A DNA stretch of 10,678 bases from a virus (taxonomy: Duplodnaviria > Heunggongvirae > Uroviricota > Caudoviricetes), in IMG/VR virus record IMGVR_UViG_2684623081_000001. The stretch is one strand, 5' to 3'. Below, one piece after another: positions 1 to 10,678 of the stretch. The notes under the pieces are model-generated. The model was not told the DNA's origin. It ran no database searches and saw only the letters and a program-made list of their open reading frames with translations. The translations under genes and the position numbers were made by a program. Position 1 is the stretch's first letter. Every line of letters starts with the position of its first letter.

Positions 1-201
1 TTACCCATTGGCGCGGCTTAAGAGCTTATTTTTGAATTCACAATGGTCACGATATAACCATCTTGCTCGCCCGTGGATAACTTTGGCTTTTGGCAGGTCG
101 CCTGACTTAATCCGGTCATAGATGAAGGTTTTACCAAAGCCAGTATCAGCCATGATGAATTTCAAATCAACCAGTGAATCAGGCTGTAGTTCGTGTTGCA
201 T
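1..201 (-). CDS. torI: AlpA/Xis-family excisionase (recombination directionality factor), TorI-like, 66 aa
   Basis: 66-aa ORF whose sequence (MQHELQPDSLVDLKFIMADTGFGKTF...) I recognise as a small AlpA-type HTH protein matching TorI in size and sequence. SD-like GGAG about 9 nt upstream of the ATG at 199-201. Window starts exactly at its stop codon. Confidence 0.65.
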   Translation of the reverse strand: MQHELQPDSLVDLKFIMADTGFGKTFIYDRIKSGDLPKAKVIHGRARWLYRDHCEFKNKLLSRANG

Positions 202-332
202 GAGTGCTATCTCCGAATAGGGAATCGAACCTGCAAATCAGGTAATAAAAATACGCTCTATGACGGCGATGGTAGATCAGGATATTTTAAGAAACTGACA
301 GGCCTCATCGAGTGTGAGGCTGTATGGCTCTA

Positions 333-638
333 TTATTTCACCTCTTGTTGTGACATTGTTGAAAAATGGATACCAGCTCGTTGCTGCCAGATGATCCAAC
401 CGAGAGTCATATCCCATGCCATGTATTCGTTATCGCCGTTTTTTGCTCTCCGACGATCTACTAAGTCACCGAAACGCTTTTCCATGAATAATTCATAGGC
501 TTCGCGTTCATCTGGCTCTACTTCCAGAGATACGAGTGCGATTTCATAAGCACGGCGCTCAATATCGTCTCGAACCTCTAGGCTGCTGATTCGTTCTTTG
601 ATTTCTTTAATCAGTTCTTTATTGGTAAATGTGGTCAT
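333..638 (-). CDS. yfdT: Hypothetical prophage protein, 101 aa
   Basis: Intact ORF whose length and position match yfdT of KplE1 by synteny. Start overlaps the stop of the upstream gene (TAATG). Sequence itself not recognised. Confidence 0.5.
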   Translation of the reverse strand: MTTFTNKELIKEIKERISSLEVRDDIERRAYEIALVSLEVEPDEREAYELFMEKRFGDLVDRRRAKNGDNEYMAWDMTLGWIIWQQRAGIHFSTMSQQEVK

Positions 639-1000
639 TATGCTCCAGCCTCCGGTGCTTTTGGCATTACTGCCCAGTGAGTGATATTGACGTTTTCAAG
701 GTCCCCAACCTGAAATGTCCACTGCCATTCTCCGGTTTCTTTTTGTCCCCAGGTGTACCAGAGAGAACGCCAGCCAATCAGCCAGCCTTCTCCGTTAGCA
801 TCAAATAACAGAACACTTTCATTTGCTGGTGGCAGTTCAGCTGACACTGGTATTATTTTGTTTTCCAGTGCCGCACATTTAGCTTCAAGCGCGTCGAATT
901 TACGTACCAGGTACTCAGCATTTGTTTCGTTCACTTTCAGATCTCGCGGTACACATTTCCCGCGAAGAAACCCTTCCATTTCGAAAACATTCATGCGCAT
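638..1000 (-). CDS. yfdS: Hypothetical prophage protein, 120 aa
   Basis: Intact ORF, length and position consistent with yfdS. Overlaps the 3' end of the upstream yfdR-like gene by 10 nt, suggesting an operon. Confidence 0.5.
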   Translation of the reverse strand: MRMNVFEMEGFLRGKCVPRDLKVNETNAEYLVRKFDALEAKCAALENKIIPVSAELPPANESVLLFDANGEGWLIGWRSLWYTWGQKETGEWQWTFQVGDLENVNITHWAVMPKAPEAGA

Positions 1001-1527
1001 TTGCGTAACTCCGATAAATCGTTAAAACGTTCCATAAACATCCCGTAGGCATGACCCGGTGCCAGTGGAATCACGTTGAACATCTCTGTTGCCGGGATGC
1101 CTTCCAGTACAGGCCAGAAAGAGCCATCATCAAGCCCGAGATCACGGCGTTCGGTTGCCAGCATAATGAGATCGGCATATTTCACTGGCGTGCTCATAAC
1201 AGGAGGTAACCCGTATTTCTCACGGATTACTGCATCTATTTTTTCTTCCATCCGTTTATAGTCAGGAAGAAGGCGTTTCAGTGGTGCGGGGATGTCCTGG
1301 CAATACGCTTCTGTTGCATCATGCATTAATGCTTCAAAAGCAAATTCCTGCGGCACCAGCTGGCTGCAAAGCACCGCATGTTGGGCGACACTGTAGAAGT
1401 GAGAAAGATGACCGGCAAAGCGGCAGATATTTGAAAGGGAAACCGCGATATCGTTAATCACGATGTCGTCTTTATTTATCTTGTCATAATAAAAATGCTT
1501 CCCGGAAAAAGTTTTAATAAATGACAT
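991..1527 (-). CDS. yfdR: HD-domain phosphohydrolase, YfbR-like 5'-deoxynucleotidase, 178 aa
   Basis: His and His-Asp motifs with HD-superfamily spacing (FYSVAQHAV ... LMHDATEAY ... ERRDLGLDD). Start chosen at the internal ATG 1525-1527, which has GGAG 8 nt upstream and gives 178 aa; the ORF track's longer 187-aa start lacks an RBS. Confidence 0.7.
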   Translation of the reverse strand: MSFIKTFSGKHFYYDKINKDDIVINDIAVSLSNICRFAGHLSHFYSVAQHAVLCSQLVPQEFAFEALMHDATEAYCQDIPAPLKRLLPDYKRMEEKIDAVIREKYGLPPVMSTPVKYADLIMLATERRDLGLDDGSFWPVLEGIPATEMFNVIPLAPGHAYGMFMERFNDLSELRKCA

Positions 1528-1620
1528 TTTGTTCTCCACGTATATGCGCTGCACCGCGCTGAGTTTGGGTAAAAGGAAGCCCTCACCATCCGGTGATTAT
1601 TGAGTTAATTACGTTTCCAT

Positions 1621-1642
1621 AAATGCCCCCGCAGGGGCATTT
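1621..1642 (-). terminator. Candidate hairpin between yfdQ and yfdR (9-bp stem AAATGCCCC / GGGGCATTT, 4-nt loop)
   Basis: Perfect inverted repeat read directly from the sequence, about 12 nt downstream of the yfdQ stop on the minus strand. The following tract is only partly U-rich. Confidence 0.3.
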
Positions 1643-1654
1643 GCAGTAATGAAA

Positions 1655-2479
1655 TCAGGCGGTGAAAGTACCAATAAAGGTTTCTACTTTGCTGTCTTTG
1701 AATTTCTCAACAAGCAGATCACGAAATTCGTTAGCCATATCTTCCTGCACCGCTTCCAGCTGAATAATGCGCAGAACCAGTACAGGACGATCGCCAGTGA
1801 TAATGCTGAGGCGTAATTTAAACGGACGTTCTTTCAGACCTTCAAACGGAACGCATTTAAATTCAAATGCCACTGGCATAATGTCTTTGGTCTTCGCTTC
1901 GACAGATTCCATCAGGGAGCGTTTGCCGCTGAAGTCATTATCTTCAAAATCAGCGGTCTGGTTTGCTTCAATCGTGATTTTACGGATTGCCGCAGCCGCT
2001 TTTGTTGCCTGAATGGCGTCACCATTAGCATCAAAGCCCACAAGGTAGTCGGCCCAGTCTTCAATCCATTCTGCCAGTGATTTCTGGGAGTTACGCTCGC
2101 CGTTAACAGACAACAGGGCAGAGAACGGTGCTGTCTTTTTCAGTTTGAGAGTGGCGGTGTTATCTGCGTGACCTGGTTCATCAATAGTACCCAGGTTAAG
2201 CACACTGACGGCACGCATATTATCAGCATCGATAAAGCAGCGGGTGCCTTCATCTGCAAGATCTTTAGAATAACGGGTAAAGTCATCGATGCTGGCAGTG
2301 GAAAGCGCACCACGGAAACGGAAGCGATTTAAATTAAATTTTTCCAGATCATGAATGCGGAAATTCTCAGGCAATGCCACAGCATCGGCACCAATCTTAC
2401 TGATAATTTCATTAACACCCTGAGCAGAAATAAGGGCATGGATTTGATTAATTGCGGTTGCGTCTAAGTTCTGAGACAT
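1655..2479 (-). CDS. yfdQ: Hypothetical prophage protein, 274 aa
   Basis: Long intact ORF with GAGGA 7 nt upstream of the ATG at 2477-2479. Length and position match yfdQ by synteny. Confidence 0.55.
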
Positions 2480-2544
2480 AATAAGTCCTCACTATATTAA
2501 GATATTCAGTGATGAGATAAATAATTAGTTAATTAAGAATGATA

Positions 2545-2907
2545 TTAATGACCTGCTGCGCGGAGTTTTCCGTCAGGCTCACCGGCAAGAGTCAGTAATT
2601 GTCCCTGGTCTTCCTGCAGAATAGTCAGGCGACCACCGCGATTGACATACATCGGCGTTTCGGTGGTGTCTTCTTCGGAAATTTTCCCACGGTTAGTCGG
2701 GCGAACATATGAGAGTTTGTGTTTGATTTTCAGACGGTTCTCATCAAATGGTTCGATTTCCAGGTTGAGTGAGACCTTACCTTTGGTTTTCGTGTTCATC
2801 ACACCGGAAGCGACTTCACTGAGAACTGCGCCGATTTTGGTTTCAAATACGCCGCCGTCCAGCTCCCCGATAAATGCCTGCACATCAGTACTGCGTTCGC
2901 TAGCCAT
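2545..2907 (-). CDS. yfdP: Hypothetical prophage protein, 120 aa; first gene of the leftward block
   Basis: Start placed at the ATG 2905-2907 (MASERSTDV...), which has GAGGAG 7-8 nt upstream; the ORF track's 148-aa upstream start has no RBS. 120 aa matches yfdP. Confidence 0.55.
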   Translation of the reverse strand: MASERSTDVQAFIGELDGGVFETKIGAVLSEVASGVMNTKTKGKVSLNLEIEPFDENRLKIKHKLSYVRPTNRGKISEEDTTETPMYVNRGGRLTILQEDQGQLLTLAGEPDGKLRAAGH

Positions 2908-2993
2908 TTTGCTGCTCCTCATCATAACCGCAATGCGTCGAATGTTTATCAGCTTAACGTTGCGAAGCTTCAGGCAGCGGCATTTTCTCAACT

Positions 2994-3068
2994 GTCAGAC
3001 TCTGACCCGTCAAAATCTGACGCATCAAAATCTGACCCGTCAAAATTTGATGCGTCGAAATCTGGCAA
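2994..3068. repeat. Five tandem 15-bp iteron-like direct repeats (consensus GTCAAAATCTGACCC), each with internal GTCA-N5-TGAC dyad symmetry; degenerate copies continue to about 3145
   Basis: Units at 2994-3008, 3009-3023, 3024-3038, 3039-3053 and 3054-3068 read directly from the sequence. Further CCGTCAG-containing copies at 3084-3101, 3105-3119 and 3128-3145. Confidence 0.8.
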
Positions 3069-3264
3069 AAAATCGGGTTTTCACCCGTCAGAATCTGGCG
3101 GGGATCCGTCAGTAAAATCAAAACATGATCCGTCAGATAAAAAACCTTCTCGTCCGGACGCTTCGCAACCGGACACGCAGACGGATGAACAGGATTTTTT
3201 AACTCGCCATCCTGATGCGGTTGTATTCAGCCCTAAAAAGCGCCAGTGGGGAACGCAGGATGAT

Positions 3265-3633
3265 TTGACCTGCGCACAGTGGCTCTGGAAAAAAATCATC
3301 GCCCTGTACGAGCAGGCCGCCGAATGTGACGGCGAGGTGGTTCGTCCCAAAGAACCGAACTGGACAGCCTGGGCAAACGAAATTCGCCTGATGTGTGTGC
3401 AGGATGGTCGTACTCACAAACAAATCTGCGAGATGTACAGCCGCGTCAGCCGCGATCCGTTCTGGTGCCGTAACGTGCTCAGCCCGTCGAAGCTGCGGGA
3501 AAAATGGGATGAGCTTTCCCTGCGCTTATCGCCGTCCGTCAGCACGTACACAGAAAAACGCGAAGACCCGTACTTCAAAGCCAGTTACGACAATGTGGAC
3601 TACAGCCAGATCCCGGCAGGATTCAGGGGGTGA
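3265..3633 (+). CDS. yfdO: C-terminal fragment of a lambda O-like replication initiator (TTG start as drawn, 122 aa); probably a 5'-truncated gene
   Basis: The frame is open without any ATG/GTG/TTG from the stop at 2770-2772 to 3265 and reads through the iterons as a Ser/Asp/Pro/Lys-rich linker, as expected for an origin embedded in an initiator gene. Length matches yfdO, which I recall being annotated as a defective O-family protein. Confidence 0.55.
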   Translation: MTCAQWLWKKIIALYEQAAECDGEVVRPKEPNWTAWANEIRLMCVQDGRTHKQICEMYSRVSRDPFWCRNVLSPSKLREKWDELSLRLSPSVSTYTEKREDPYFKASYDNVDYSQIPAGFRG

Positions 3634-4124
3634 GCATGAGTCTTTTGAATGACGTTCAGAAATTCATTGAAGCCCATCCGGGCTGTACTTCCGGAGACAT
3701 TGCGGATGCTTTTGCAGGTTACTCACGGCAGCGCGTTCTGCAGTCAGCAAGCAAGTTACGTCAGAGTGGGCGTGTGGCTCACCGTTGTGAAGGAGATACA
3801 CACAGACATTTCCCGCGCCTGACTGAGAGAGCGCAGGATCCGGAACCACAACCAGTTCGTGAAACCAGACCTGTGCGCAATTTCTATGTCGGCACTAACG
3901 ACCCGCGGGTGATTTTGTGCCTGACCCGCCAGGCGGAAGAACTGGAGTCCAGGGGCTTATACCGTCGTGCTGCAACGGTGTGGATGGCGGCATTCCGTGA
4001 AAGCCACTCCCAGCCAGAACGAAACAATTTTCTGGCGCGTCGTGAACGGTGTTTACGGAAAAGCAGTAAGCGGGCTGCATCAGGTGAAGAGTGGTATCTC
4101 TCAGGGAATTACGTGGGGGCTTAA
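3630..4124 (+). CDS. yfdN: Hypothetical prophage protein, 164 aa from GTG 3630 (162 aa from ATG 3636)
   Basis: Intact ORF. AGGGGG lies 6 nt upstream of ATG 3636, so that may be the true start. The GTG start overlaps the yfdO stop (GTGA). Confidence 0.55.
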   Translation: MSMSLLNDVQKFIEAHPGCTSGDIADAFAGYSRQRVLQSASKLRQSGRVAHRCEGDTHRHFPRLTERAQDPEPQPVRETRPVRNFYVGTNDPRVILCLTRQAEELESRGLYRRAATVWMAAFRESHSQPERNNFLARRERCLRKSSKRAASGEEWYLSGNYVGA

Positions 4125-4399
4125 TGAGTAATAAATATTGCCAGGCGCTGGTGGAGCTGCGGAACAAACCAGCCCATGAACTGAAGGAAGTGGGCGATCA
4201 GTGGCGCACGCCGGACAACATTTTCTGGGGAATTAACACCCTGTTTGGCCCGTTTGTTCTGGATCTGTTTACTGATGGTGATAACGCCAAATGTGCCGCG
4301 TATTACACTGCGGAAGACAACGCGCTGGCGCATGACTGGTCAGAACGTCTTGCGGAGCTTAAAGGTGCTGCCTTTGGTAATCCCCCGTACCCGTGGTAA
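4124..4399 (+). pseudogene. yfdM: N-terminal fragment of a phage DNA N6-adenine methyltransferase, truncated just after the catalytic NPPY motif (91 aa)
   Basis: Sequence [10 protein letters not shown]...[27 protein letters not shown]...GNPPYPW followed by a stop. Phage Dam-type enzymes normally continue well beyond NPPY. ATG overlaps the yfdN stop (TAATG). Confidence 0.6.
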
Positions 4400-4448
4400 C
4401 CCCCAGACCGGCACGCCTGCCACCGATCTGGATGATGACTACTTTGAC

Positions 4449-4967
4449 ATGTTGCAGGAGGAGCTTTGCAGCGTTGTGGAGGCCTCCGGTGCCAGCCTGG
4501 AGAAGGGGCGGCATGACCAGCTGCTTACCGCGCTTCGTGCGCTGCTGTTAAGCCGCAAGAATCCGTTTGGCGATATCAAATTGGACGGCACGGTGCAAAA
4601 GGCTCTCGAAAACCTTGGTTTGGGAGAAGCGGCTAAAAGAAATGTAGGGACAGGGGCGAATCAGATACCTGATATGGGTAGTTTTATGCTTTCTGCTTCA
4701 GTTCCTGGATATCAAAAATTGCCATCCGGTTTAATTATTCAATGGGGGCCAATTGATGTTCCGCTGACGTCTCAGGACACAGTAACCTATTTTCCGATTG
4801 CATTTCCGAATAGATGTCTGCGGGTATTTGCGACTCAGGATTACACTCCCGGCAGTGCAAATGTTGGCTATATAGCTTGTGCCGGTTATAACCAGGACCC
4901 GGTGAAATTTATTTCCAGAGCAGGCGTACCCGGTATCGGTGCTTCATTTTTCGCATTAGGGTGTTAA
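4449..4967 (+). pseudogene. yfdL: C-terminal fragment of a phage side tail-fibre protein, 172 aa from an internal ATG
   Basis: Tail-fibre C-terminal-like sequence begins within a few codons of the methyltransferase truncation point. No upstream tail-fibre shaft or baseplate genes. The ORF track's 240-aa version starts inside yfdM in another frame and is an overlap artefact. Confidence 0.55.
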
Positions 4968-4993
4968 TTTCTTTTAACTTTATGGAGTGAAAA

Positions 4994-5434
4994 ATGAATT
5001 ACATATATTCCGCGACTACAAACTCTTTCTATCCCTTGGAGATGAAAGAGGATTACACGCAAGCTGGCTCATGGCCAGATGATGCTGTTGAAGTTGATGA
5101 GCAAGTGTATATTGAGTTTTCCGGATTACCGCCGAAAGGAAAAATCCGTATCGCTGGAGAAAATGGTTTTCCTGCATGGTCTGAAATTCCACCACCAACA
5201 CATGAGGAACAGATTGCTGCAGCCGAACTGAAAAAGCAGCAATTGATTAATCAGGCCAACGATTATATGAACAGTAAACAATGGGCTGGTAAAGCGGCTA
5301 TTGGTCGTCTGAAAGGTGAGGAACTGGCGCAATATAATTTGTGGCTGGATTATCTGGACGCACTGGAGCTGGTCGATACTTCCAGTGCGCCAGATATTGA
5401 ATGGCCTACTCCTCCGGCAGTTCAGGCCAGATGA
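4994..5434 (+). CDS. yfdK: Tail-fibre assembly protein (Tfa family), 146 aa
   Basis: C-terminal DTSSAPDIEWPTPP motif characteristic of lambda Tfa-like chaperones. GGAGTG 6 nt upstream of the ATG. Confidence 0.7.
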   Translation: MNYIYSATTNSFYPLEMKEDYTQAGSWPDDAVEVDEQVYIEFSGLPPKGKIRIAGENGFPAWSEIPPPTHEEQIAAAELKKQQLINQANDYMNSKQWAGKAAIGRLKGEELAQYNLWLDYLDALELVDTSSAPDIEWPTPPAVQAR

Positions 5435-5750
5435 CATCCGGCGCGGTGCTGGTATCTGTTGCCGTCACCGCGTCAATGTAATCCAGCACAGTGTTAAGTC
5501 GGGAGGTCTCTGCCTGCATCAGCTTCCGCCCAGCCTGTAATTTCAGTTGAATCAGACTAATGGAAGCCATTGCAGTATCAATCAGCGACTGGCGCTGTGC
5601 TTCTGCTGCATCTACTGCGACGCTATGCTGTGCCTCGGTATCCGTCACCCATTTCTCACCATCCCATTTATCGTATGGCGTTAATGGGGCGATAGTCGCG
5701 GGACGCATACAAACATAACCCCTGGATGTTATGTGTCTATCGAGAATCAA
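5406..5750 (-). pseudogene. tfaS: Tail-fibre assembly protein fragment (C-terminal half only), convergent with and overlapping yfdK
   Basis: Aligns by eye to the C-terminal half of lambda Tfa (YDKWDGEKWVTDTEAQ ... DTSTAPDVIWPELP). N-terminal half absent; ORF as drawn starts at TTG. Confidence 0.6.
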
Positions 5751-6018
5751 AGTGGAAGTCCTTATGTTAAGTATAAGACAGGAATCACTTATAACGATAA
5801 TCAGTTAGTATATGTATCTATCACTGTTGATGATAATATCAGCACTTGGTTCTGGAGGGGGTTTGTTGTGGGCAATGATGCATTTAAGTTATCGTCTGCA
5901 GATAGAGGAGATATTACAATAAACAACGAATCAGGGCATTTGATAGTCAATACCGCAATTCTATCAGGAGATATAGTCACTCTAAGAGGAGGAGAAATTA
6001 GGTTGGTATTATAGCTTG

Positions 6019-6040
6019 TGCGCGCCATGATTGGCGCGCA
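6019..6040 (-). terminator. GC-rich hairpin (9-bp stem TGCGCGCCA / TGGCGCGCA, loop TGAT) 9 nt downstream of the yfdI stop
   Basis: Perfect inverted repeat read from the sequence, sitting at the 3' end of the gtr operon. No clear U-tract on either strand, so terminator function is uncertain. Confidence 0.35.
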
Positions 6041-6048
6041 ATTTAAAC

Positions 6049-7380
6049 TTAGTGCTTTACATCGCTATTGTCTTGATTTCTTTGAATTATTTTATAAATT
6101 AAAAAAACGACTGTTATGTATAAGCAAAGGTCGAACGAAAAATACATTCCAAATAAATGCTTGCTTAAATCTCTATATCCTTCCCCGAAAAATGACACAT
6201 AAAATTGAGATATTCCAAAAAGAGATACTACAAATAAAGATGCCTTTATTTTATTATTTCTAATAAAAATAGAAGCAATAAAAAATAATAACAATGATAT
6301 AAATCTAATGTTTTTAAATATATTGTCTTTTATGTTAGTAATAGTCGTTAGTATGTTTGATTCTCCATATATTACGTGTAGTTTTTTATATACATGGAAA
6401 TAATTTTCTTTATACTGAGACATCACACCATCATCAAATGGAAGTTTGAAGATGGTGCTTGGTTTGCTAACCAATAAAAAGAGTGCATTCGAAAACGTTT
6501 CATCTTTATGAGATTCGAAACATTCCGTTCCAACTTCTGTTGGGGTTGCGCCAAATGATATGTCGAATTTATTACCCCAGGCATCTAACCCAACACACTT
6601 ATCATCAACATACGATGGCATTTTATACCCGTTGTTTTTCATATAAAGATAACTACCGAAGTATGTTGCATGGTACTTATTTAATTCAACAACACCTTTT
6701 GAATAAGATATTGCAAATATTGACGCAAGCAAGCACACCACGCATATTACAGATTTAATAATTAGTTTGTGTCTATCAAAAAAAATATAATATGAATACA
6801 CTATTAGTGGGGTTAATATAAATTGATTTTTAGCAGTAGATATTATTAGCAACGAAAAAAATAGCAAAAGCATAGATTTATTGTTTTTGCATGTTAATGA
6901 ATACACCAAAAATGGAAGGAAAATTATAACTATTTGCTCTTGATAGAATGATGCAAACATTGACAGTGTTGATGAAGAACACATAAGAAAAGCTAAAATA
7001 AAGAATGTAAATAAAGTTACATACCTTTCTGTTTTTATATATGAAGTAAATATCGCATATAATGAATAAATATATATTACTTTTAGAAATAACGATAACA
7101 CCCTAGCATCAAGATATTCAGTAAAAATGCTAATAAACAGGACGTATGTATACAAAATATAACTATATGAACTTATATACTCATAGCTATCAATTGAATC
7201 AATATGACCTTTCAATTTATACAATAAAGGTAAGTCATATGTAAATGCTGGTATGTCTTCAATTAATGGCTTAATGGCTCTTCCGAAATCAGATGTATTT
7301 AACATCATTATGTTTTTAGATAAGGCGCAAATAATCAAAACAAAAGATATATACAATGATACTTTTATTGCTTTATTCAT
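6049..7380 (-). CDS. yfdI: Polytopic membrane protein, putative serotype-specific O-antigen glucosyltransferase (GtrS-like), 443 aa
   Basis: Third gene of a gtrA-gtrB-gtrX arrangement. Very AT-rich and highly hydrophobic with many predicted transmembrane segments. Start overlaps the yfdH stop (ATGA). Size matches yfdI. Confidence 0.7.
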
Positions 7381-8297
7381 TTTTTGACTCTCTTGATGAT
7401 GTATTTCGGGCGTTTTTTGGTTTCAATGTATGTGCGTCCAATATATTCACCTAATACTCCTATTCCAATCATCTGAATTCCACCTAAAAACAGTATTGAA
7501 ACAAGTAGTGAAGGATATCCCCTAACAGCATTTCCAAATATGATAGTATCTAAAATCATCCACGCCCCATAAATAAATGCTACACTGGCTACCACTAACC
7601 CTATGTATGTCCAGATGCGAAGAGGGAATGTGGAAAAGCTTGTAATACCCTCAAGTGCTAAATTCCAAAGTTTCCATCCATTAAATTTTGTATCTCCAGC
7701 AATTCTTTCCGCTCGCACGTATTCAACAATATCTGTCTTTCCTCCTACCCAGCTCAGAATACCTTTCATGAAAAGGTTTCGTTCTGGCATAAGTTTAATA
7801 TTTTCGACAACATCACGGCTCATCAGCCTGAAATCACCAACATTCTCTTCAATTTTAGGATTGCTTATTTTATTGTGGAGCTTATAGAACCACTCAGCCG
7901 TTTTTCGCTTCAGGCGTCCATCAGTTGAGCGGTCAGATCTTTTAGCAAGAACCATATCAGCACCTGCTTGCCATTTTTCAATAAGATGAGGAATAACCTC
8001 AATCGGGTCTTGCAGGTCAACATCAATTGGGATTATCGCATCCCCGGTTGCATGGTCTAACCCTGCAAACAATGCTGGTTCTTTACCAAAGTTGCGTGTA
8101 AATGACAGCGGAACAACTAGAGGATCTGAAACAGCCAGAGCATTAATGATTGACTCCGTAGCGTCTTTGCTGCCGTCATTTATGAAAACGATTTCCACTT
8201 CATATGACTTCAATTCTTCGAATTCACGTACCGTTTTATAAAAAATTGGTATCGCTTCTTCTTCATTGAAGACAGGAACTACAAGAGATATCTTCAT
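7377..8297 (-). CDS. yfdH: Bactoprenol glucosyltransferase (GT2 family, GtrB-like), 306 aa
   Basis: N-terminal GT2 signature ([26 protein letters not shown]) and C-terminal transmembrane segments. Start overlaps the yfdG stop (ATGA). Confidence 0.85.
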
Positions 8298-8656
8298 TTC
8301 GCATCCCTAAAGACAATGAACTTTGAATAGACGAAACCGCACACCAGGCTGATGGCGGAGAAGGTGACAAGAGTTATCATCGGGGGAAGTGCGCATCTAT
8401 CAGCAGCCCATCCAACAGTAGCACTCAGTGTCCCCATGAACCCAACATATAGCATGTAGCGCATCGTTGTAGTCGATGCCTTGAATGTGAATTTTGCATT
8501 CGCGAAGAAGCTAAAGCTCACAGCCACAACGAAACCTGCGAAGTTTGCAAGAGCTTGGTTTGTATGCGCGACATAGATACAAACACCAAAAACCACCCAG
8601 TGTATAAGGGTGTTCAGCACACCAATAGAGGTGTACTTTGCAAATAGCTTTAACAT
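8294..8656 (-). CDS. yfdG: GtrA-like small membrane protein (bactoprenol-linked glucose flippase), 120 aa
   Basis: 120-aa hydrophobic protein with about four predicted transmembrane segments, first gene of the gtr operon. Confidence 0.8.
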
Positions 8657-8808
8657 TTCTTCTATCAGCTAATAATCAAAGGAATGAAGTCTATCATCCA
8701 AGTCTTAATCGATCGATACTTGCTGTGGTTGATGAGACAAAACTTATACACACAAAGCTTTGCACTGGATTGCAAGACTTTGTGCTATTCGATAGTTGTT
8801 AAGGTCGC

Positions 8809-8871
8809 TCACTCCACCTTCTCATCAAGCCAGTCCGCCCATGAAGTCAGCCCCATACGATATAAGTTGTT
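8809..8871 (-). pseudogene. intS: Probable 3' remnant of the prophage integrase (last ~20 codons), truncated by cassette insertion
   Basis: The minus-strand frame ends at a stop at 8809-8811, about 152 bp upstream of the gtrA start, matching the expected integrase-gtrA spacing. Upstream, the frame runs straight into vector sequence at the SpeI site 8872-8877. Assignment is by synteny only. Confidence 0.4.
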
Positions 8872-8892
8872 ACTAGTGCTTGGATTCTCACC

Positions 8893-8921
8893 AATAAAAA
8901 ACGCCCGGCGGCAACCGAGCG
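8893..8921 (-). terminator. Phage lambda t0 intrinsic terminator, oriented to stop the cat transcript
   Basis: Minus-strand hairpin CGCUCGG-UUGCCG-CCGGGCG followed by UUUUUUAUU. The flanking 79 nt (8893-8971, minus) match my recollection of lambda oop RNA. Confidence 0.85.
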
Positions 8922-8998
8922 TTCTGAACAAATCCAGATGGAGTTCTGAGGTCATTACTGGATCTATCAACAGGAGTCCAAGCGAGCTCGATATCAAA

Positions 8999-9658
8999 TT
9001 ACGCCCCGCCCTGCCACTCATCGCAGTACTGTTGTAATTCATTAAGCATTCTGCCGACATGGAAGCCATCACAAACGGCATGATGAACCTGAATCGCCAG
9101 CGGCATCAGCACCTTGTCGCCTTGCGTATAATATTTGCCCATGGTGAAAACGGGGGCGAAGAAGTTGTCCATATTGGCCACGTTTAAATCAAAACTGGTG
9201 AAACTCACCCAGGGATTGGCTGAGACGAAAAACATATTCTCAATAAACCCTTTAGGGAAATAGGCCAGGTTTTCACCGTAACACGCCACATCTTGCGAAT
9301 ATATGTGTAGAAACTGCCGGAAATCGTCGTGGTATTCGCTCCAGAGCGATGAAAACGTTTCAGTTTGCTCATGGAAAACGGTGTAACAAGGGTGAACACT
9401 ATCCCATATCACCAGCTCACCGTCTTTCATTGCCATACGGAATTCCGGATGAGCATTCATCAGGCGGGCAAGAATGTGAATAAAGGCCGGATAAAACTTG
9501 TGCTTATTTTTCTTTACGGTCTTTAAAAAGGCCGTAATATCCAGCTGAACGGTCTGGTTATAGGTACATTGAGCAACTGACTGAAATGCCTCAAAATGTT
9601 CTTTACGATGCCATTGGGATATATCAACGGTGGTATATCCAGTGATTTTTTTCTCCAT
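8999..9658 (-). CDS. cat: Chloramphenicol acetyltransferase, type I (Tn9/pACYC184-type), 219 aa
   Basis: Full-length sequence recognised ([25 protein letters not shown] ... [28 protein letters not shown]). Confidence 0.97.
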
Positions 9659-9790
9659 TTTAGCTTCCTTAGCTCCTGAAAATCTCGATAACTCAAAAAA
9701 TACGCCCGGTAGTGATCTTATTTCATTATGGTGAAAGTTGGAACCTCTTACGTGCCGATCAACGTCTCATTTTCGCCAGATATCGACGTC
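9659..9790 (-). promoter_or_regulatory. cat promoter and 5'UTR (Tn9/pACYC184-derived), up to the AatII site
   Basis: Minus-strand sequence ACGTTGATCGGCACGTAAGAGGTTCCAACTTTCACCATAATGAAATAAGATCACTACCGGGCGTATTTTTTGAGTTATCGAGATTTTCAGGAGCTAAGGAAGCTAAA immediately precedes the cat ATG. Confidence 0.9.
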
Positions 9791-9865
9791 TAAGAAACCA
9801 TTATTATCGTGACATTAACCTATAAAAATAGGCGTATCACGAGGCCCTTTCGTCTTCACCTCGAG

Positions 9866-9925
9866 GATAAATATCTAACACCGTGCGTGTTGACTATTTT
9901 ACCTCTGGCGGTGATAATGGTTGCA
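9866..9925 (+). promoter_or_regulatory. Phage lambda PR promoter with operators OR2 (9876-9892) and OR1 (9900-9916); OR3 truncated at the XhoI site
   Basis: -35 TTGACT at 9890-9895, 17-bp spacer, -10 GATAAT at 9913-9918, expected start at A 9925. Operator sequences TAACACCGTGCGTGTTG and TACCTCTGGCGGTGATA recognised. Confidence 0.92.
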
Positions 9926-9938
9926 TGTACTAGAATTC

Positions 9939-10678
<740 letters not shown>

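Follow-up and report, generated by a model that had tools for sequence, protein, structure and literature searches.

A probable deletion scar joining a Dam methyltransferase stub to a tail-fibre remnant in the cryptic prophage CPS-53 (KplE1) of Escherichia coli K-12

Results

Genes at the locus

A BLAST search of complete E. coli genomes showed that positions 1-8841 of the analysed stretch of 10,678 nt (the window) match the chromosome of E. coli K-12 strain ER1709 over all 8,841 nt with 100% identity. In the ER1709 annotation this region carries torI, yfdT, a yfdS-like gene, yfdR, yfdQ, yfdP and a 5'-truncated helix-turn-helix (O-like) gene, followed to the right by yfdN, yfdM, a gp53-like domain gene, yfdK, a 5'-truncated tail-fibre assembly gene, yodE and the gtrS/yfdH/yfdG cluster. 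Beyond this cluster, the K-12 record continues with intS and then a tRNA-Arg. By this identity and by the gene order from torI to intS at argW, the locus is the cryptic prophage CPS-53 (KplE1) of E. coli K-12, with the order torI - yfdT to yfdP - yfdO' - yfdN - yfdM' - yfdL' - yfdK - tfaS' - gtrS/B/A - intS next to argW; intS and argW themselves lie past the engineered right end of the window or are replaced there. KplE1 has been described as a defective remnant of 10.2 kb at argW that comprises 16 ORFs, lacks a repressor and is still capable of excision (PMC2951348), and the gtrABS genes of CPS-53/KplE1 are responsible for O16 antigen glucosylation (PMC11990801).

The identity to K-12 stops at position 8841, after approximately 33 nt of the intS 3' end, and positions 8842-10678 are synthetic. 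This engineered end contains the chloramphenicol acetyltransferase gene cat (8999-9658, minus strand), the lambda PR promoter with its OR operators and a synthetic RBS in the style of the pZ vectors (about 9866-9961), and a gene for a YFP-type GFP variant (9962-10678), which runs off the window. Since this synthetic cassette is located in the 3' end of intS, the window originates from an engineered K-12 strain carrying a PR-YFP cat cassette in intS.

The gene yfdM (4124-4399, plus strand) is a 5' stub of a phage gene for a Dam-family N6-adenine methyltransferase, as assigned by Pfam and PGAP. The match to the phage Dam family PF05869 is clear (E=2.5e-23, 83 bits with a cut-off of 28.1), in agreement with the earlier note, which had described a methyltransferase-like frame ending near the NPPY motif. 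The complete catalytic domain is nevertheless absent, as the stub covers only positions 3-69 of the 169 profile positions (67/169), whereas an intact homologue of 217 amino acids, the length found in every intact homologue inspected, covers positions 3-167. Native Dam codons 1-89 of 217 are kept, the last one being the tyrosine of NPPY. From there on the frame reads G-N-P-P-Y-P-W-stop, with the stop codon at 4397-4399 and a product of 91 amino acids, so that the stop does not follow six residues after the motif, as had been claimed, but two. The codons for P, W and stop are tail-fibre DNA read out of frame. Consistent with all this, PGAP labels yfdM in the K-12 record as 'incomplete; missing C-terminus'. 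Since about 60% of the Pfam domain is gone, methyltransferase activity of YfdM appears unlikely. A PDB sequence search with the intact 217-residue Dam, which was to show where the motifs missing from the stub lie, gave no match at E<=0.01, and the loss-of-function reading for YfdM is therefore drawn from the Pfam profile coverage.

Directly behind the stub lies the remnant of yfdL (4389-4967, plus strand), a tail-fibre gene of the Mu/e14 (StfP) type. It is read in the +1 frame relative to the Dam frame of yfdM and ends with the stop codon at 4965-4967. Its C-terminal domain matches PF21882 (Gp53-like_C) over the full profile (positions 1-84 of 84, E=3.4e-18). The change of frame into fibre sequence had thus been recognized correctly; the fibre is not reduced to its C-terminus, as had been assumed, since codons 22-213 and the stop codon are present (192 of 213 codons, 90%). 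What is missing is the gene's own start codon together with the first 21 codons, that is, the intact N-terminus behind a baseplate gene. These codons are present in the phage vB_EcoM-720R4, in E. coli strain 1409 and in stfP loci, where a YmfQ/Mup48-like gene immediately precedes them, and the yfdL-type fibre measures 213 amino acids in every intact homologue inspected. The remnant is 98.1% identical to the 'putative protein YfdL' of 720R4 and 99.84% identical to the locus with the full-length gene in strain 1409.

Because the two frames are offset by one base, no yfdM-yfdL fusion protein would be made. The junction does create a chimeric ORF (4332-4967, plus strand), which begins with an ATG in Dam-derived DNA outside the Dam frame and encodes 19 new residues before it enters the fibre frame. 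PGAP annotates this ORF as a 'gp53-like domain-containing protein' of 211 amino acids (WP_042405267.1); in the K-12 locus annotation it occupies positions 6233-6868 (window 4332-4967) without a pseudogene flag (RefSeq/PGAP).

On the left, yfdM is directly preceded by the PerC-family gene yfdN (3630-4124, plus strand, PF06069), and the order O - PerC/YfdN - Dam is common to the phages SfII and 720R4, the prophage of strain ECKH-257 and the K-12 left flank. On the right, yfdL is followed by the tail-fibre assembly gene yfdK (4994-5434, plus strand, PF02413, E=1.9e-39), an order that is also found in 720R4 and strain 1409. An Rfam scan of the whole window gave nothing at the gathering threshold, and a promoter and terminator consensus scan of positions 3500-5600 yielded the same counts as shuffled sequences, with none at the junction.

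The breakpoint

Among the listed matches that reach the junction, taken from 3,796 E. coli and 90 phage records with homology to the query, the Dam homology extends as far as query position 791 (window 4390) and the fibre homology begins at query position 789 (window 4388). The breakpoint is thus defined by an overlap of three nucleotides, TAC at 4388-4390, of which one copy has been kept; TAC is at the same time the tyrosine codon of NPPY. In base-by-base alignments of the junction with 720R4, SfII, ECKH-257 and strain 1409, the Dam parent has ...GGTAATCCCCC(A)TAC to the left and AGCCGCGCC... to the right of the point of joining, the fibre parent ...AACGGTTTTAC to the left and CCGTGGTAACCCCCAG... 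to the right, and the window itself reads ...GGTAATCCCCCGTACCCGTGGTAACCCCCAG... across it. TAC alone is common to both parents at this point. The yfdM and yfdL pieces abut without any spacer; a gap of about 10 nt, as given in the earlier note, does not exist. The expectation that the breakpoint could be mapped to a few bases by alignment to an intact relative, and that microhomology should be looked for there, was well founded. Yet the TAC microhomology is barely above chance (an overlap of at least 3 nt has P about 0.05 under random joining), and it is only marginally informative, so an involvement in the joining may be proposed with weak support.

We found neither a recombinase target nor the end of a mobile element at the junction, no inverted repeats there, and no IS or att sequence in either parental alignment at this position. 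A site-specific deletion by an invertase, an integrase or an IS element is unsupported, as repeats and recombinase sites are missing at the junction. An imperfect direct repeat, TGGTAAYCCCC (10/11 positions), does bracket the breakpoint, with TGGTAATCCCC at 4375-4385 and TGGTAACCCCC at 4394-4404. One copy belongs to the Dam parent (Gly-Asn-Pro of GNPPY) and the other, 19 nt apart, to the fibre parent (Gly-Asn-Pro of RGNPQ). A match between the flanks as good as this one occurs in 1.4% of shuffles, in a test that was made post hoc. We rejected this repeat as the crossover site, because both copies survive and the switch of homology takes place at TAC between them.

Within yfdL, at 4603-4628, there is a putative crossover site of the Hin/Gin/Pin type, CTCTCGAAAACC TT GGTTTGGGAGAA, which we take to resemble hix and gix sites. 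It consists of two imperfect inverted 12-mers around a central TT, with the core AAACC TT GGTTT at 4610-4621, and it sits at the boundary where the homology of yfdL to stfP genes ends; in the stfP locus of strain 102651, the homology to yfdL breaks exactly at the central TT. The window holds a single copy. This sole site lies approximately 220 nt from the junction, and an invertase-mediated deletion was rejected on these grounds. The partner site and the invertase have presumably been lost. It would fit these observations that yfdL, yfdK and tfaS represent one half of a formerly invertible fibre segment, whose other half was lost together with the invertase at the scar at position 5696 (see below).

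Intact relatives and the missing interval

Both parental sequences occur together in intact phages. In Escherichia phage vB_EcoM-720R4 (ON470603.1), window positions 2925-4390 correspond to 27920-26455 (98.0% identity) and positions 4388-5696 to 1621-313 (98.1%); the two flanks are collinear and on the same strand, and the two copies of TAC are 24,836 bp apart. Shigella phage SfII (KC736978.1) likewise has both flanks in one genome (left 98.5%, right 94.8%), with a distance of about 26.2 kb between the breakpoint copies as calculated from coordinates; SfII contains extra IS elements. SfII has been described as a lambdoid phage of Myoviridae morphology that carries gtr genes (PMC3772137). Either phage possesses a full Dam of 217 amino acids and a full YfdL-type fibre of 213 amino acids in the same orientation.

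The interval between these points begins in 720R4 and SfII with the rest of dam, a LexA-like gene, rusA, a KilA-N gene, a DUF968/YdfU gene and Q, and in 720R4 it also includes a second methylase. It continues with holin, endolysin, Rz/Rz1, HNH and the small and large terminase subunits, and then with portal, protease, major capsid, connector, sheath, tube, tape measure and DNA-circulation protein. Mu-type baseplate genes (homologues of Mup44-48) and the first 21 fibre codons close the interval. Late-regulator, lysis, packaging, head and tail genes thus separate the two flanks in the intact phages, exactly as the earlier note had stated. Its estimate of tens of kilobases for the deletion was also right, while the claim of one deletion is a matter of parsimony, to which we return in the Discussion.

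A third relative is useful for the left flank only. ECKH-257 (NZ_CM181232.1) harbors an intact prophage at tRNA-Thr with yfdT-yfdP, yfdN and a full-length Dam at 96-99% identity. Behind the same Dam region, however, follow tail genes of the lambda type (gpJ, Lom and a long S74-peptidase fibre). Due to this tail and the unrelated fibre it was rejected as an intact comparator for the whole junction; it illustrates an early-region module that is shuffled between tail types. Downstream in ECKH-257, there is also a SMODS/SLATT pair and a gene for a pPIWI-associated nuclease. 720R4, SfII and ECKH-257 are all mosaic relatives and none is the direct ancestor. We recovered no intact argW prophage with the exact int/attP/torI module of CPS-53.

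Further scars within the remnant

The Dam/YfdL junction is not the only scar in this prophage. From BLAST coordinates and base-level alignment, a second, independent deletion scar with a 2-nt overlap (TA) is located at 2925/2926, where 3,228 bp are missing relative to 720R4. The immunity region with cI, cro and genes like ymfL/ymfM has been lost there, as has the 5' end of the O-like replication gene, of which a yfdO fragment remains, and PGAP describes the helix-turn-helix gene at this scar as 'missing N-terminus'. A third scar lies at 5696/5697, where the homology to 720R4 ends at position 5696. It truncates tfaS (5406-5696, minus strand), a tail-fibre assembly gene in the opposite orientation of which the 3' part is left; this part matches PF02413 only at profile positions 34-131. 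About 104 codons are absent from its 5' end (PGAP: 'missing N-terminus'), and tfaS abuts unrelated DNA that leads to yodE and gtrS.

A sister remnant in strain 1409 and the distribution of the junction

E. coli strain 1409 (NZ_CP063369.1), a chicken isolate, carries an orthologous element at the same dsdC/argW site (locus coordinates 11849-24823). It is 99.93% identical to window positions 1-2695 and 99.84% identical to positions 4388-8841, and many proteins, among them TorI, YfdT, YfdQ, YfdH, YfdG and IntS, have identical RefSeq accessions in strain 1409 and K-12. The element is without yfdO, yfdN, yfdM and the 5' part of yfdP. In place of yfdO-yfdM, it has four baseplate genes and a YmfQ-like gene, preceded by the 3' part of a DNA-circulation gene and followed by a yfdL of full length (213 amino acids); the sequence to the right of the K-12 breakpoint thus continues leftward into tail genes in the sister lineage. 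Strain 1409 has a junction of its own, near 14539-14543 in locus coordinates, which joins yfdP to the DNA-circulation gene, two points that are approximately 25.3 kb apart in 720R4 coordinates.

The remnants in K-12 and strain 1409 are thus complementary survivors of one ancestral prophage that possessed both the dam and the tail region. The truncation of tfaS at position 5696 occurs in both strains, and the tfaS scar is therefore older than the split of the two lineages and older than the Dam/YfdL deletion. Strain 1409, in contrast, has a full-length yfdL and a different deletion, and the Dam/YfdL scar of K-12 therefore postdates this split. The argW prophage has decayed independently in the two lineages, with torI, intS and gtrABS kept in both.

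Of 5,426 complete E. coli genomes, 360 contain, with 100% identity over its full length, a 54-mer that spans the junction; the junction is therefore no product of chance or of assembly. We sampled 27 of these 360 evenly down the ranking, and all 27 are K-12 strains or isolates with genomes of ~4.6 Mb in which the sequence is identical. The junction is restricted to such K-12-type genomes. It is identical in MG1655, W3110, DH5alpha, BW25113, TOP10 and other independently sequenced genomes. The same 54-mer is present in none of 50,697 phage records, and none of the 90 matching phage records spans the junction.

Discussion

The junction in the window corresponds to the yfdM/yfdL pseudogene pair that has already been annotated in the defective prophage CPS-53, and it is a real but ordinary case of prophage decay. 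The site is very probably the scar of an illegitimate, i.e. homology-independent, deletion inside CPS-53/KplE1. According to the gene content of the relatives, the ancestor would have been an SfII/SfV-type lambdoid myovirus with a Mu-like contractile tail, not with a lambda-type tail. We propose that this serotype-converting phage, of the SfII / vB_EcoM-720R4 type, was integrated at argW and that its genes were arranged as early region, O, PerC (yfdN), dam, nin-region, Q, lysis, terminase, head and Mu-like contractile tail, followed by baseplate, fibre (yfdL), tfa, gtrABS and int. A break-and-join event or a template switch then probably connected the NPPY tyrosine codon of Dam to fibre codon 21/22 across TAC. 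About 25 kb with all late-regulatory, lysis, packaging and morphogenesis genes would have been removed in this way. Due to the frame offset of one base, the Dam stub ends two codons further on with about 40% of the methyltransferase domain, and the fibre gene has been deprived of its start and its first 21 codons. The resulting element is no longer able to form particles or to lyse the cell; the int/torI excision module and the gtrABS genes for O-antigen glucosylation have been kept. CPS-53 is cryptic because Q, the lysis genes and all morphogenesis genes have been lost.

A single junction fits one deletion as well as several nested ones, and one deletion is the parsimonious reading. The junction could also be the end product of successive deletions, each later one erasing the junction of the earlier one. 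The locus has certainly been hit repeatedly, as there are two other independent scars in the same 10-kb remnant (2925/2926 and 5696/5697) and another large deletion accounts for the decay in strain 1409. However, no intermediate has been seen. The junction is the same in each of the 360 genomes that bear it, and among the four further genomes with the tfaS scar but not this junction (364 against 360 genomes), those inspected do not include a visible intermediate. Together with parsimony, which prefers one event, this makes a nested series rather unlikely in our opinion. A very improbable origin is recombination between two co-resident elements, a lambdoid prophage with dam and a Mu/e14-like element with an stfP-type fibre. 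One could think of it since the 5' region of the fibre gene is widely common to stfP of e14-like elements, a second match of 30 nt exists within K-12 itself, presumably in e14, and lambda-type tails occur in some relatives with Dam, such as ECKH-257. Against this, the two modules stand together, in the required orientation, in the genome of 720R4 and in that of SfII, and strain 1409 has the torI-yfdQ arm and the baseplate-yfdL-yfdK-gtrABS-intS arm in one argW element with more than 99.8% identity to K-12.

A short methyltransferase-like gene next to a tail-fibre gene might be the natural, functional arrangement in some phage lineage, which is what the earlier note had named as the finding that would speak against its own reading. 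The continuous ORF of 211 amino acids that PGAP predicts over the junction and a phenotype reported for YfdM in a preprint (10.1101/413146) could be quoted in favor of it, but such a case is absent from all 90 matching phage records, the intact homologues inspected all have 217 (Dam) or 213 (YfdL) amino acids, the stub covers 67 of 169 Pfam positions and the fibre has no start codon. We consider a natural arrangement extremely unlikely. The probability of an artefact of strain engineering or assembly is just as negligible: positions 8842-10678 are indeed synthetic, but the cassette is 4.4 kb away and the same junction exists in MG1655, W3110, DH5alpha, BW25113, TOP10 and others. The illegitimate deletion in an SfII-like ancestor hence remains our preferred reading of the site.

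It is conceivable that the scar has made new functional genes, either the 91-residue YfdM stub or the putative chimeric ORF of 211 amino acids, but we regard this as improbable. If it were true, the YfdM stub would act by something other than methylation, since ~60% of the domain is missing, and the chimeric ORF would encode a tail-fibre receptor-binding protein with a new N-terminus of 19 residues, retained by the host alongside YfdK. In the preprint mentioned above, deletion and overproduction of yfdM changed the propagation of the T1-like phage SW1, and YfdM was interpreted as a Dam methylase (10.1101/413146). The truncation of yfdM, as far as the sequence can tell, argues against the Dam-methylase mechanism put forward there, not against the phenotype. 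Published descriptions of YfdM as a "putative Dam methylase" should be viewed with some caution, as the protein is a 41% N-terminal stub ending at the catalytic NPPY.

The yfdM/yfdL pseudogene pair of this well-known K-12 prophage is already known. In a search of the literature that was not exhaustive, we found no description of the breakpoint at base level or of the sister remnant in strain 1409. What is gained is a base-level record of how one of the nine cryptic prophages of K-12 lost its late genes, which is of little consequence beyond bookkeeping. The decay in two lineages with int/torI and gtrABS kept would fit a retention of useful modules for O-antigen modification and excision.

Illegitimate deletions at short homologies in E. 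coli are RecA-independent and involve a few bases of overlap. The CPS-53 junction resembles them in that one copy of the shared short sequence is kept and that neither a mobile-element end nor a site-specific site is present. It differs from them in its overlap of just 3 nt, which is near chance (P about 0.05).

SfII and 720R4 share with CPS-53 the early-right segment O - PerC - Dam (98.0-98.5% identity) as well as the short fibre and assembly genes (94.8-98.1%), which in the phages stand behind Mu-like baseplate genes. In SfII, gtrA and gtrB moreover adjoin int as they do in CPS-53, with 82% identity to window positions 7393-8781. In contrast to CPS-53, the two phages are complete, with late genes separating the two points by 24.8-26.2 kb, and the serotype-specific gtr gene of SfII/720R4-type phages differs from that of CPS-53. 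In addition, int and xis are neighbours on the SfII genome map, whereas intS and torI of KplE1 lie at opposite ends of the prophage. With CPS-53/KplE1 of K-12 itself, the window agrees in locus, in RefSeq gene names and in the junction, which is without any difference; it departs from the standard prophage in that intS is disrupted by the cat/PR-YFP cassette in the window's strain.
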